Positions 1 through 3,575 of a stretch of DNA of 14,700 nucleotides are shown in pieces (within the stretch, counting starts at the first letter, position 1; every line of letters begins with the position of its first letter). Both the position numbers and the translations under genes were made by a program. This DNA comes from a virus (taxonomy: Duplodnaviria > Heunggongvirae > Uroviricota > Caudoviricetes): IMG/VR virus record IMGVR_UViG_2529293147_000010; one strand, 5' to 3'. Below the pieces are notes generated by a model that saw only the letters and a list, made by a program, of their open reading frames with translations, was not told where the DNA came from and searched no databases.

Positions 1-124
1 ACAACAACTGCACCGGATATTGAATGGCCAACAGTACCCATTATCGAATAGTGCATTACGAACTGCAGGATATTATATGGGATAATATTCTGCAGTTTAT
101 TGGGGCTGTATTTTAAAAAGGTGT

Positions 125-1456
125 TTATTTTGAGTGAATTATCACCTTGTTTTTTCCGGTTCTTTTGGCTTGATATAACGCTTTATCGGCATTGACTAAC
201 ATTTCAGATGGGCTGAGATTATTCTCTTTTGAAGTAAAGCAACCAATACTGACAGTTATTTTCTCAGGTCCATGCGATAATAATTTTTCCGAGCATTGCT
301 CTTCAATGTTTTTTCTGATTCGCTCTGCAATTGATAGCAAGAGCTTTTGAGTATTACCTTTAATGATAATACCGAACTCCTCACCGCCTAAGCGCCCTAA
401 TATATCCTCTTTCCTGATGGATTTTTTTATTATTCTGGTAACCATTACTATGACTTGATCACCCATATGATGCCCCCATTTGTCATTGATGCTTTTGAAA
501 CTGTCAATATCTAACATTATTACTGAGAAATCATGGTGTTTTGATATATTCTTCAATGAGTCAATAAAGTATCTTCTATTGTATGTATTCGTTAGTGGAT
601 CATGAATTGCCATATGATTAGCATGATTTAATTTCCTGAAAATATAATACATGAGTGTTGAAATGATATAAATCATTGATATCAATTCAAGAAATTTTGT
701 CATGTACCATGCAGGATGGGATTTATCAATAAAATACAATAAAATTAGATTATTGCATACTGACACTATACTAATAAGTATTATACACAACCATATTTTT
801 GAGTAATTACGTATGCTGATGCATGAGCTGATAAGTAATACAAGCCAAAATACTGATATTATTTTGGTGTACACGATATTCCACGTCGGCAAATGACGAT
901 TCAGCGAGTATTGTATAATATTAAGACTATATTTTATATTGTCACTGCTTAGATTTTTTGCTACAAACGGAGTAATAAAAAGAATTAATATTGACAAAAC
1001 AACAATTATTATGTTTCTTTTATCTTCTAAAACACTTTTATTTTTAACATTGGTGGAATAAACAGCCAGAAAGATTATAGATATAAAGCTGAACTGACGG
1101 AATAGATAATATATTGCGATATCATTTGATTTCTGATAGATTGTAGATAAATCGTTACCTAACGGAGATAAAGAAATAATAGCCACTTCTAATAAATAAT
1201 ACGTGTTGCTCAAAAACGCGAATGAAAGAATTAAGAGATAACTTTGTCTCTGATTAGAAACATAGTAAAGCAATAGAAAAATAAAAATCATCAGGTTTAT
1301 GAAAAAAAGCCCAATAATGAAAACACTATAACTTATTTGTGTTGTTTGTGTTATGTATATTCCATTATTTGCATGCAGTAACAAAAATATAATAGAGATG
1401 CATGAAAATAAAAAGATGAAGATTTTTATTTTTATAGGTACCTGGTTGATAATCAT
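125..1456 (-). CDS. Membrane-anchored diguanylate cyclase: N-terminal multi-helix hydrophobic sensor region plus C-terminal GGDEF domain (DgcT/YcdT-like architecture)
   Basis: 443-aa ORF. First ~280 aa are successive hydrophobic helices. C-terminal domain has DPLTNTYNRRYF, an RKED motif (RxxD I-site-like) just upstream of the catalytic GGEEF, and KALYQAKRTGKN. SD-like AGGTG 6 nt upstream of the ATG at 1456. Very AT-rich compared with neighbouring prophage genes. Confidence 0.85.
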   Translation of the reverse strand: MIINQVPIKIKIFIFLFSCISIIFLLLHANNGIYITQTTQISYSVFIIGLFFINLMIFIFLLLYYVSNQRQSYLLILSFAFLSNTYYLLEVAIISLSPLGNDLSTIYQKSNDIAIYYLFRQFSFISIIFLAVYSTNVKNKSVLEDKRNIIIVVLSILILFITPFVAKNLSSDNIKYSLNIIQYSLNRHLPTWNIVYTKIISVFWLVLLISSCISIRNYSKIWLCIILISIVSVCNNLILLYFIDKSHPAWYMTKFLELISMIYIISTLMYYIFRKLNHANHMAIHDPLTNTYNRRYFIDSLKNISKHHDFSVIMLDIDSFKSINDKWGHHMGDQVIVMVTRIIKKSIRKEDILGRLGGEEFGIIIKGNTQKLLLSIAERIRKNIEEQCSEKLLSHGPEKITVSIGCFTSKENNLSPSEMLVNADKALYQAKRTGKNKVIIHSK

Positions 1457-1716
1457 GTACGCACCTGAGAATGATATATATATAATATGTATCGCTACAA
1501 ATAACGATAATTTCTTACTGGTGATAGTATACTATTATTCTGGTTAATCGCTGTCAAATTGATGATTTTGGTTAGTATTGCAATAGCGAAGAGTTTGATC
1601 CGGTAAGACTGGCTAGGCAAGGCTATACCAAAAAATCAGTGTAGGTTCAGAAAACGATGCACCATACAATCATCAATAATTTCAAATTGTCCATTGTGCA
1701 TAAATCATAAAGAAAA

Positions 1717-1749
1717 CCGCAGCACGTCGTATGCAAGAACGTGCTGCGG
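1717..1749. terminator. Perfect 10-bp stem hairpin (CCGCAGCACG / CGTGCTGCGG, 13-nt loop) with A-run on the left and T-rich tract on the right; candidate bidirectional intrinsic terminator
   Basis: Inverted repeat read directly from the sequence. On the minus strand the stem is followed by TTTTCTTTAT, as expected for a terminator about 300 nt downstream of int. It separates the prophage from the GGDEF gene promoter region. Confidence 0.45.
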
Positions 1750-1790
1750 TTGGTTTGACTTTGATTGAGACGTTTTGGAATTTTTTTTTG

Positions 1791-1842
1791 TGGCAAAAAT
1801 GGGGCAAAACGCTGCAAAAGGGGCAAAAAAGGGGCAAAAAAA
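1791..1842. repeat. Five tandem copies of (G)GGGCAAAA(A) at about 10-11 bp spacing; candidate integrase arm-type binding sites of attL
   Basis: TGGCAAAAA, GGGGCAAAA, GCTGCAAAA, GGGGCAAAAAA, GGGGCAAAAAAA in direct tandem, preceded by a T10 run. An inverted copy TTTTTGCCC lies at 1931-1939. Located between the terminator hairpin and the 3' end of int. Confidence 0.45.
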
Positions 1843-2016
1843 GAGTGGATTATCGTAGTTTATTGTTCTCGCTGATGATGTTTAACACATTGAAAAATAA
1901 GTAAAACACTTATGAGTCAGATAGTTGTGATTTTTGCCCTTACTTGTTCAGGTTGTATTGTTCTTTCTTTGTAATTTGTTGATTTTCTTGCATTATTTCA
2001 GTTCTCTGGTACTAAA

Positions 2017-2036
2017 TGGGGCAAATTGGGGGCAAA
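2017..2036. repeat. Two further direct copies of the GGGGCAAA motif immediately next to the int stop codon
   Basis: TGGGGCAAA and GGGGGCAAA at 2017-2036; same motif family as the 1791-1842 cluster. Confidence 0.4.
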
Positions 2037-2044
2037 CTTTGCAA

Positions 2045-3280
2045 CTACGATAACCGCGCATTCAACATGGCTATCTGTTCGTCGTTCATGTCATCAATCC
2101 ACATACCGTAAATTTCATACACCATCTGCGCAGTTTCATGCCCCATTTGGCTGGCTATAAATGCCGGGTTCGCTCCTGCCGTCAACAGCCAGCAGGCAAA
2201 AGTATGCCGCGTATGGTACGGATTACGGCGGCGAATACCAGCACGTTTTACTGCTGCATTCCACCTTGCCCCCAAACTGCTTACCGAGTAATAAGGTTTT
2301 TGTTTTCCGTTACACACCCTGGGCATGAAAACAAAATGCAGTTTTTGCTTTTCGGTTCTGCCGTACTCCCGATGATAAAAGGGGATTTCGCTTTTGCGAT
2401 GATGCCCGGTCAGTTTGTATTGCTCCTTCAGTGCTTCAAGAGCAGGCTGCAGTAGTGTTACTGTTCGGATCCCGGCATTTGTTTTTGGGGGACCGAACAT
2501 ATCAAGTATCGTCAGGTTTCTTCTGACATTCACTATTCCCTTTTCGAGATCCACATCCTCCCACGCCAGAGCTGCCAGTTCCCCGTGACGAAGTCCTGAG
2601 TAAACGGCAAATTTCCACAAGTTCTGGCTCTGTCCTTTTTCACTTTCCATTAATGCATTGAATTCTGTTTTAGATAACGGATCAGGCTTTATTCTGTTTC
2701 GCTGTAATTTTTTTACTCCTTCAAATGGTTTGGTTGATATAAATCCCGACTGATACGCAAAACGCAACAGCGAACAGAGCAGGGCGATATAGTTATCAAC
2801 TGTGCGCACGGTTCTTCCTTTTTTGTTGGATCTTGGATTATCCAGGTAAAGCGTTTCTCCATGCAGCAGTTCATTCCGGTAGTTTAAGATATCGCTATAA
2901 CGAATATGTGATATCGGGGTACTTTCACAAATTATTATTCTGAGTGTTTTTAATTGTGATTTCGTTTTCTTCATTGTGTTTGTTGTTAACTCTGTCTCTT
3001 TAATTTTTGTCCAGATATCACAAAGCTCTCCGAACGTTTTTATGACTCTCGTTGTCACCATTTTTGCCCCAGTGCTGGACTGGGGAAAACGTCTTAAATA
3101 CTCAAATTCACCGGAGTTTATTTCATGAACTATCAGCGCTCTTAAATTTCCGGCCTTTTTAATATTACTGTTTGTAATCTCCCAGCCTTTTAATGTTTCC
3201 CGACATCGTTTTCCTCGAAACATGAACCAGATGCGAATGTATCTACCTCTAATCTCGACACCTGTTGGTAATTTAGACAT
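2045..3280 (-). CDS. intR: Tyrosine site-specific integrase (Rac prophage IntR type)
   Basis: 411-aa ORF beginning MSKLPTGVEIRGRYIRIWF. C-terminal catalytic region has the R...HxxR...Y pattern (NPYHTRHTFACWLL, then MVYEIY). Length and N-terminus match my recollection of K-12 IntR. The xis gene ends 2 nt upstream of its start. Confidence 0.93.
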   Translation of the reverse strand: MSKLPTGVEIRGRYIRIWFMFRGKRCRETLKGWEITNSNIKKAGNLRALIVHEINSGEFEYLRRFPQSSTGAKMVTTRVIKTFGELCDIWTKIKETELTTNTMKKTKSQLKTLRIIICESTPISHIRYSDILNYRNELLHGETLYLDNPRSNKKGRTVRTVDNYIALLCSLLRFAYQSGFISTKPFEGVKKLQRNRIKPDPLSKTEFNALMESEKGQSQNLWKFAVYSGLRHGELAALAWEDVDLEKGIVNVRRNLTILDMFGPPKTNAGIRTVTLLQPALEALKEQYKLTGHHRKSEIPFYHREYGRTEKQKLHFVFMPRVCNGKQKPYYSVSSLGARWNAAVKRAGIRRRNPYHTRHTFACWLLTAGANPAFIASQMGHETAQMVYEIYGMWIDDMNDEQIAMLNARLS

Positions 3281-3281
3281 A

Positions 3282-3497
3282 TCATGAGTCTTTGATAAAC
3301 TGATTTATCTTTGGATAGTTGTACCAGATAATCCCTCGTTTGCTGTCTGGCTTACCTAAAGGAGATACTCGTTTGAAGTGGAAGCCCTCCACCCAACAGT
3401 TCTGGCGGTATGCTTCAATTTGTCTGGCCCCCAGACCAGTGCGAAGCATCAGGCCGTATTCAACCATCCACTCTTCATTAAAGATTACTTGTGCCAT
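3282..3497 (-). CDS. xisR: Excisionase-like small DNA-binding protein (Rac XisR/YdaQ)
   Basis: 71 aa from the internal ATG at 3497 ([16 protein letters not shown]...), with GAGGGG SD about 5 nt upstream. The ORF track's longer 79-aa version starts at a TTG. Classic xis-int arrangement. Confidence 0.85.
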
Positions 3498-3575
3498 CGC
3501 ATCCCCTCTGGCAGGCGCCAATGTTAGACTGAAATTGACGCCCGATGTTGATTATTAATAATCAGCTATGAAGTT

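Follow-up and report, generated by a model that had tools for sequence, protein, structure and literature searches.

The DNA analysed here is a 14,700-nt stretch of the IMG/VR virus record IMGVR_UViG_2529293147_000010 (Caudoviricetes), referred to below as the window, and its subject is a set of short repeats, GGGGCAAAA, that lie between the 3' end of the integrase gene intR and a hairpin on the side of the diguanylate cyclase gene dgcX. The segment from about 1790 to 2037 is an intact attP (P arm, core and P' arm) of a Rac-like lambdoid phage that integrates at the 5' end of ttcA, and the GGGGCAAAA repeats are very probably the arm-type sites of IntR. The P arm, to the left of the core, carries a ladder of five units, and the P' arm, to the right, carries a tandem pair and is followed by intR (Table 1). 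An earlier interpretation made from the letters of the DNA (the sequence-only reading) had seen here the left boundary of a prophage, attL, and had proposed that the repeats are integrase arm-type sites. The first proposal did not survive comparison with other genomes, and the second is the most likely explanation in view of the integrase domain (PF12167), the motif counts and a geometry shared with relatives. The region belongs to ordinary phage biology, and what it adds is a putative integrase-binding motif that can now be read.

Positions 1400-2100 of the window were used as a BLAST query against 5,426 complete E. coli genomes, and three blocks resulted. The first (1400-1753), containing the upstream region of dgcX and the hairpin, occurs in many genomes beside a diguanylate cyclase gene. 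The second (1713-1986), with the hairpin, the ladder and the rest of the P arm, is found at a second location in K-12 and BL21, and the third (1944-2100) occurs in the majority of genomes, annotated with ttcA on one side and intR on the other. In alignment A1, the sequence from the hairpin through to TTGTTCAGGTTGTATTGTTCTTTCTT is the same in the window and in the attR sites of K-12 and SE11, and the K-12 attL equals the window from this 26-mer on through int; the segment common to the attR-side and attL-side alignments is 26 bp long. Left of it, the DNA is ~96–99.5% identical to the attR arm of K-12 Rac and SE11. Since the left side matches the attR of K-12 and SE11 and the right side matches the attL of K-12, positions 1944-1969 are the common core of an attP that has not been split. 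All 26 columns of the core are invariant across the window attP, the K-12 attL, the attR of K-12 and SE11 and four further, diverged attR arms, and it coincides with the annotated Rac boundaries in NC_000913.3. Strand exchange takes place somewhere within it. In a second alignment (A3), of six diverged Rac-type attR arms that are 81–96% identical, the ladder has 45 invariant columns out of 53, the spacer between ladder and core 45 out of 79, the core all 26, and the stretch left of the ladder 9 out of 38. Homology among diverged Rac-type arms begins at about 1790, at the first repeat, so attP starts there and the hairpin lies outside it.

The sequence-only reading would have the region as the attL of a single prophage, in which the crossover core and host DNA would be at the hairpin or close to it and every repeat would belong to one long P' arm. 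It is true that int is adjacent and transcribed toward the region, that the repeats lie between int and the hairpin, and that homology to loci carrying only dgcX ends at the hairpin (query 1-354). However, the 26-bp identity with both K-12 junctions is 193 bp away from the hairpin, on its right, and falls within the copy of the ttcA start that the phage carries; positions 1713-1969 match the K-12/SE11 attR arm, which adjoins uspF; all DNA to the left of the hairpin is of phage origin (tfa, dgcX); and the hairpin is a lambdoid module boundary common to HK97 and Tritos, not a junction between host and phage. On the side of the core away from int, where an attL would have host DNA, the phage P arm is found instead. 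Phage DNA thus lies on both sides of the core, the attR phage arm on the left and the attL phage arm on the right, with tfa and dgcX beyond the former and int beyond the latter. Alignment A1 refutes the attL interpretation, which we regard as highly improbable. A core that matches the other prophage end, as had been predicted, was indeed found, but both ends are fused here as attP. The placement of the repeats on the P' arm was right for the pair at 2018-2037 and wrong for the five-copy ladder, which belongs to the P arm, normally found at attR. The absence of any tRNA-like sequence was confirmed with ARAGORN, a tRNA target was rejected on that ground, and the target is ttcA.

In ordinary lysogens, the body of ttcA starts at window position 1943 and runs leftward. 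The phage copy of its 5' end comprises 17 codons (MQENQQITKKEQYNLNK, then a stop), is identical to the start of ttcA at the K-12 attL, and contains the core; once the phage has integrated, this copy provides the N-terminus of ttcA in the lysogen. Liu et al. 2015 (PMC4632033) report that the N-terminus of TtcA is altered upon excision. Recombination between attB (in ttcA) and the attP described here would split the site, the P' pair and int going to attL and the ladder to attR.

A precedent for an unsplit attP within a chromosome comes from tandem prophages. In PCP06235 (NZ_CM129869.1, ~2.53–2.60 Mb; L094 and L099), the order is ttcA, intR, xisR, then recET, head and tail genes, and J, lom, stf, tfa, pin, ydfK and ynaM, after which come the hairpin and attP and a second set beginning with intR and xisR. 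The strain is a tandem double lysogen at ttcA, with two Rac-like prophages joined by an intact attP. A similar attP junction is present in Jnd12 (L001), and the extents of BLAST matches suggest that EC28 and E275a are also tandem at ttcA. Among complete E. coli genomes, Rac-type prophages in tandem seem to have arisen more than once or to be a repeated occurrence. The window comes either from a junction of this kind between Rac-like prophages, the one on the left carrying dgcX, or from a phage genome in circular or vegetative form, and its attP is unsplit because of one or the other. What looked like a prophage edge is a complete attP, and the locus therefore marks tandem Rac-like prophages or a phage genome.

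The ladder consists of GTGGCAAA at 1790, GGGGCAAA at 1801, GCTGCAAA at 1811 and GGGGCAAA again at 1820 and 1831, with spacings of 11, 10, 9 and 11 bp, so the five tandem repeats at helical-turn spacing of the sequence-only reading were correctly seen. In the sense of int the motif becomes TTTGCCCC, and the ladder resolves into two tandem pairs (1831+1820 and 1801+1790) with a degenerate copy (1811) between them. Runs of T9 and A7 flank the ladder. The former had been described as T10, and its length differs among relatives, K-12 having T7CG at this place and the diverged arms varying. The two further direct copies, which begin at 2018 and 2029 and had been given as 2017-2036, end 8 bp short of the int stop codon. 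One inverted copy had also been claimed, at 1931-1939; it is present with one mismatch at 1933-1940, 4 bp left of the core, adjoining the stop codon of the truncated ttcA mini-ORF (open reading frame). It is less conserved than the ladder and is therefore a doubtful site.

The exact motif GGGGCAAA occurs six times on both strands of the 14.7 kb, compared with an expectation of 0.66 ± 0.77, and none of 200 shuffles reached six. Five of these six copies are in attP, on one strand and within 236 bp. A motif distinct from the core is, in other words, present on both arms above chance frequency. The sixth copy falls in intR, in the part coding for a conserved RFPQS motif close to where the arm-binding domain ends, and an inverted near-copy, GGGGAAAA, lies 11 bp from it (3063-3070 on the minus strand and 3082-3089 on the plus strand). 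This internal GGGGCAAA is probably a coincidence of coding, or could be an autoregulatory Int site.

Table 1. Features in and around the attP of the window (positions are those of the window; a full stop in the strand column means no strand).
Feature	Position	Strand	Basis or remark
tfa 3' end (tail-fibre assembly, last late gene)	1-51	+	SE11 layout; ORF ends with TAG at 49-51
dgcX, MASE4-GGDEF diguanylate cyclase	125-1456	-	Pfam GGDEF 3.5e-44, MASE4 9.3e-36
Hairpin, AACCGCAGCACGT / ACGTGCTGCGGTT	1715-1727 / 1739-1751	-	13-bp perfect stem, 11-nt loop
T9 run directly left of ladder	1781-1789	.	Length not conserved
P-arm ladder, five units, candidate IntR arm-type sites	1790-1842	-
Block TAACACATTGAAA, integration host factor (IHF) consensus with one mismatch	1883-1895	-	Alignment A3
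Inverted copy AGGGCAAA (GGGCAAA), one mismatch	1933-1940	-
Phage copy of ttcA 5' end, MQENQQITKKEQYNLNK then stop, 17 codons	1940-1993	-	Translation
Common core TTGTTCAGGTTGTATTGTTCTTTCTT, 26 bp	1944-1969	.	Alignments A1 and A3
Perfect IHF consensus AATCAACAAATTA (= WATCAANNNNTTR), candidate H' site	1972-1984	-	Exact-match scan
P'-arm tandem pair GGGGCAAAT / GGGGGCAAAC, 11 bp apart, candidate IntR arm-type sites	2018-2037	-
intR, tyrosine integrase	2045-3280	-	Pfam PF12167 Arm-DNA-bind_2 aa 5-69, 4e-26; PF00589 1.8e-22
xisR, excisionase (DUF1233)	3282-3521	-	Pfam PF06806 8.9e-21; annotation of relatives

The IntR protein is identical to that of the intR annotated in strain Jnd12 (WP_000040852.1). 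The arm-binding domain PF12167 (DUF3596) is that of the IntBPP-1 subgroup, whose members have been called putative integrases (Smyshlyaev et al. 2021, PMC8138268), and the Pfam match (4e-26) places IntR in this subgroup. In a sequence search of the PDB, only the catalytic domain of IntR was matched (Tn1549 Int), and the arm-binding domain had no structural relative there. Intact attPs were read in phages whose integrases all carry PF12167, namely PHB10 (integrase 69% identical to IntR) and Tritos, phi367 (933W type) and Providencia PSTRCR_117lys (43–44%). The arm and core sequences of the compared phages are without evident similarity, except for the ttcA-derived segment that PHB10 shares with Rac. 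Nonetheless, five intact attPs, with integrases 43–69% identical to IntR and different host gene targets, have a common geometry: two GCCCC motifs with a spacing of 11 bp, placed at +7/+18 or +15/+26 when counted from where the Int alignment ends, and a cluster of GCCCC on the same strand beginning at +213 to +225. Twenty-four GCCCC occur in the 1,805 nt concerned, where 1.17 would be expected from the rest of the loci (Poisson P ~2e-23). The 11-bp pair at or over the int 3' end is seen in PHB10, Tritos, phi367, the Providencia phage and a Klebsiella phage, and the layout of pair, gap and pair on the P arm is seen in Rac, PHB10 and phi367, with spacings of ~11, 19–20 and 10–12 bp. In Rac and PHB10 the outermost P-arm unit deviates from GCCCC (GCCAC and TGCCC), and the flanking bases are concerted between the two arms of one phage (GCCCCTAT in PHB10, mostly GCCCCAAA in phi367).

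A more distant case is Pseudomonas phage IME307 (vB_PaS_IME307), with an integrase only 29% identical to IntR that still carries PF12167 (1.4e-12). Its repeat is a different one, A(A/T/C)TGGTACA, which is paired with a spacing of 12 bp both at the 3' end of int and ~183–194 bp downstream of there (2353-2377 and 2536-2560 of L101). The same geometry with another motif is the covariation expected if the N-terminal domain reads the repeats. Motif and geometry thus track the integrase lineage, being kept in relatives, with the motif changed in the distant IME307. The coding status of the P' pair varies: in Rac and PHB10 it is non-coding and directly follows the stop codon, and in the integrases of 43–44% identity (Tritos, the 933W-type phi367, and the Providencia and Klebsiella phages) it is inside a C-terminal extension of int (AP-x-MP; 3738-3762 of L087 and the int 3' ends of L089, L090 and L091), which looks like a DNA site overprinted on a protein tail.

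Recombination directionality factors typically have their sites as tandem direct repeats on the P arm, and the ladder could be supposed to be a binding array for XisR, comparable to X1-X1.5-X2 of lambda Xis. The compared enterobacterial phages, among which IME307 is not included, also share a DUF1233 excisionase, and conservation alone cannot separate Int sites from Xis sites. The motif is, however, also paired on the P' arm, and the lambda paradigm predicts no Xis sites there. Further evidence comes from an electrophoretic mobility shift assay in Liu et al. 2015 (PMC4632033), in which XisR shifted a 294-bp AttR fragment but not a 291-bp AttM fragment. When the primers given there are mapped on K-12, AttM takes in the hairpin and every unit of the ladder, and its P-arm sequence ends directly before the core (469-759 of L006, with the ladder at 606-658); AttR contains the ladder, the core and 98 bp of host DNA. 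Since AttM was not shifted although it carries the entire ladder, the ladder is insufficient for XisR binding. The Xis array was rejected on the primer mapping together with this published result, and as an explanation of the ladder it is improbable.

It could also be argued that the ladder is mainly structural, with A5–A7 tracts phased every 10–11 bp producing curved DNA that takes over from a bending protein or helps it, and no specific recognition of GGGGC. The A-tract spacing of 9–11 bp over five units would suit this, as would the T9 and A7 runs at either side. Yet it is GCCCC that is invariant in the family, whereas the A/T tracts vary (TAT in PHB10, A3 in phi367); the motif recurs as a pair on the other arm; and the repeat unit of IME307 is without an A-tract. 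We give this view slightly less weight again than the XisR array, though curvature may contribute and is compatible with the repeats being arm sites.

The claim that no ORF explains the repeats needs qualification, as the Prokaryotic Genome Annotation Pipeline (PGAP) places a 57-aa hypothetical protein (WP_001157925.1) at 1731-1904 on the plus strand, across the ladder. If this were a gene, the repeats would be its coding sequence, and an ATG-initiated ORF annotated in several RefSeq genomes is what such a view has to offer. Against it, the start codon lies in the loop of the hairpin, no Pfam match was obtained, and the product would be a low-complexity protein rich in K and G. Diverged relatives conserve neither the N-terminus nor the stop: the upstream half is unrelated and the frame is cut short. 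In each of them the composition of the ladder leaves two or three frames open through it. On these grounds the coding explanation was rejected, and of the alternatives considered it is the least probable. WP_001157925.1 is most likely a spurious gene call propagated through many genomes.

With the repeats taken as arm-type sites, IntR would act as a heterobivalent tyrosine integrase. Its catalytic and core-binding domains would act on the core at 1944-1969, and its N-terminal Arm-DNA-bind_2 domain would bind TTTGCCCC (= GGGGCAAA) at one pair on the P' arm and two pairs on the P arm, all in one orientation and at ~50–70 bp (P') and ~100–155 bp (P) from the core. Bridging of arm and core, together with DNA bending, would build an intasome like that of lambda. 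Candidate aids to bending are an IHF consensus, a near-consensus block and the phased A-tracts of the ladder. The match WATCAANNNNTTR at 1972-1984 is the sole exact one in 1650-2100 and one of three in the whole window; it lies in ttcA-like coding sequence between the core and the P' pair, which is where an H' site could be placed. The block at 1883-1895, midway between ladder and core, has 11 of 13 positions invariant in A3 (TAACA, two variable bases, then TTGAAAAA continuing to 1897). It was compared with the IHF consensus by eye and was not listed by the exact-match scan, and it is a possible site for a bending protein.

A broader generalization can be put forward tentatively, and we would not yet lean on it: that tandem pairs of the TTTGCCCC type are a general arm-site code of enterobacterial integrases with PF12167 (IntBPP-1 type), including those of Stx phages that target wrbA, on a scaffold of ~200 bp from P' to P that consists of a pair, the core and at least one further pair, and that IntR occupancy or int read-through could control ttcA. 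In lysogens, the P' pair lies 25–45 bp upstream of the phage-supplied ttcA ATG. A consensus scan found no sigma-70-like promoter on the ttcA strand (minus), and ttcA may depend on read-through from int or be influenced by IntR binding. If this were true, a host gene for tRNA thiolation would be under the control of one or the other.

The hairpin outside attP had been described with a 10-bp stem at 1717-1749; it is real, and its stem is longer (13 bp, 1715-1727 and 1739-1751). The RNA has a stable fold in either sense, at −25.8 kcal/mol (z −5.1) for the minus strand and −27.4 kcal/mol (z −4.4) for the plus strand, and it was from folding, in place of a consensus scan, that a terminator was judged. 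Of the two senses, that of int (minus) has the better run of U next to the stem, namely UUUUCUUUAU in the window, UUUUUC in K-12 and Tritos and UUUCAUUUAU in HK97; in the opposite sense the stem is followed by UGGUUUGAC. K-12 Rac and SE11 have the same hairpin. It is also present in HK97, where it lies 124 bp past tfa and is 60 bp distant from the annotated sib, and in Tritos, where it comes ~290 bp past an int 44% identical to IntR. A further copy adjoins dgcX in the lambda-type prophage that occupies lambda attB, and there an HK97-like sib, a match to lambda-type arm sites and the lambda core come next. We interpret the hairpin as a conserved, terminator-like element marking where the tail-fibre and cargo genes give way to the att-int module. 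Transcription in the sense of int is probably halted there before it can reach the dgcX promoter; in Rac-type phages the hairpin takes the place of tI, with direction and any retroregulation putative. In the more diverged Rac-type attR arms (L095, L096 and L097, ~380-500), an extra ~100 bp lies between hairpin and ladder, and this segment is homologous to HK97/Tritos sequence between the hairpin and sib, which indicates that the DNA between hairpin and attP is itself mosaic. Searches of Rfam produced sub-threshold matches only: IsrM at 17 bits, and CssrB (RF02799) at 44.1 bits for 1653-1748 on the plus strand, below its gathering threshold of 76, with only the 3' hairpin and a short 5' stretch aligned and ~100 model positions deleted. 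CssrB is a ~180-nt small RNA (Shigella sRNA B) reported in S. flexneri (PMC3071730), and the family appears to end in this widespread lambdoid-prophage hairpin.

A number of observations weigh against the interpretation of the region given above and should be kept in view. A search with the whole window found dgcX, attP and int contiguous in none of the complete E. coli genomes searched, and a scan of GTDB species-representative genomes for the dgcX flank linked to the P' arm by an exact gapped pattern gave no match; only the IMG/VR contig L049 (4.4 kb, 99.9% identical) has the same arrangement. The assignment of the repeats to IntR draws on comparative and statistical evidence. The third unit of the ladder is degenerate, the inverted copy beside the core is mutated (G to A) in two relatives, and phased A-tracts could contribute by intrinsic curvature alone. 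In the integrases of 43–44% identity the P' pair is coding, and its conservation there could be partly at the protein level. As for the hairpin, CssrB puts it at the 3' end of an RNA of plus sense, and a consensus terminator scan had no hit, a miss that would be accounted for by the 9–11-nt loop of the hairpin being longer than the 8-nt limit of the scan.

The genes to the left of attP follow the layout of SE11, in which tfaR, a 74-bp gap and a diguanylate cyclase gene succeed one another as they do in the window. The full order in SE11 is stfR, tfaR, the diguanylate cyclase gene, hairpin, ladder, core and uspF, so that both the GGDEF gene and the ladder are part of a Rac-type prophage, at its right end. 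DgcX was named by Richter et al. 2014 (PMC4287979). Its gene is positioned between tfa and the hairpin/attP arm both in SE11 (3726-5057 of L002) and in 99-3165 (1226-2557 of L100), the latter having the lambda-type prophage at lambda attB. In these two prophages the gene, by its position inside the prophage borders, is to be viewed as phage cargo (a moron) and not as a flanking host gene. This refines the published idea of 'hitch-hiking by specialised transduction', because dgcX, highly expressed in enteroaggregative E. coli (EAEC) O104:H4, is true phage cargo in the SE11 and 99-3165 prophages. On the other side of intR, the xisR annotated in relatives corresponds to the 3' 216 nt of the ORF at 3282-3521.

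Several features agree with known systems. The architecture of attP for a heterobivalent integrase is textbook knowledge, and the site described here resembles that of lambda in having an integrase with an N-terminal arm-binding domain, a total length of ~250 bp, arm sites on both sides of the core, adjacent int and xis, and a hairpin beyond the P arm. Lambda's annotated Int sites are comparable in span and spacing, and those on its P' arm, like the Rac P' pair, adjoin or overlap the 3' end of int ('int 4' of lambda, 27814-27854, with the int stop at 27812). It differs in having PF12167 as the arm-binding domain, where lambda has PF09003; in its three tandem pairs in a single orientation; in a 26-bp core inside a protein-coding gene, ttcA; and in its arm motif, TTTGCCCC, that of lambda being C/AAGTCACTAT. 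The hairpin can be compared with the sib (tI) of lambda and HK97, in that it lies past attP on the downstream side of int, has a U-tract when read in the int sense, and is parted from int by integration. Its sequence has no similarity to either sib, and HK97 carries its own annotated sib (21042-21091), a different sequence, between the hairpin and attP; no sib-like element was seen between hairpin and ladder in Rac-type phages.

With K-12 Rac, the window shares IntR, XisR, the core and the ttcA target, and the K-12 attR arm has the same ladder (NC_000913.3, 1434805-1434857). The difference is that in K-12 the two halves are ~23 kb apart, and here they are joined as attP; in addition, K-12 carries pinR-ynaE-ynaM where this phage carries dgcX. 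Liu et al. 2015 (PMC4632033) report the attL, attR and attB sequences and XisR binding for K-12 Rac, and no description of arm-type sites was seen there; no arm-site motif or geometry for IntR, Rac, 933W or PF12167 relatives was found in the literature searched, which omits most subscription journals. The Rac att junctions, XisR binding and attP architecture were known, and what appears new here, and is well supported, is the arm-site motif with its geometry. The results provide a testable motif and a minimal attP (~1790-2037) for IntR, and by extension they cover the PF12167 integrases, a poorly characterised group to which the enzymes of wrbA-integrating Stx phages belong, with uses in the prediction of att sites, the engineering of integration vectors and the delimiting of prophages. 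The IntBPP-1 subgroup includes the integrases of BPP-1, Stx2a phage and Gifsy-2 (Smyshlyaev et al. 2021, PMC8138268). Integrases of the 933W/VT2-Sakai type are 43% identical to IntR and, although IntBPP-1 integrases use other cores and host targets (e.g., wrbA), their attP has the same geometry of a GCCCC pair plus a cluster.

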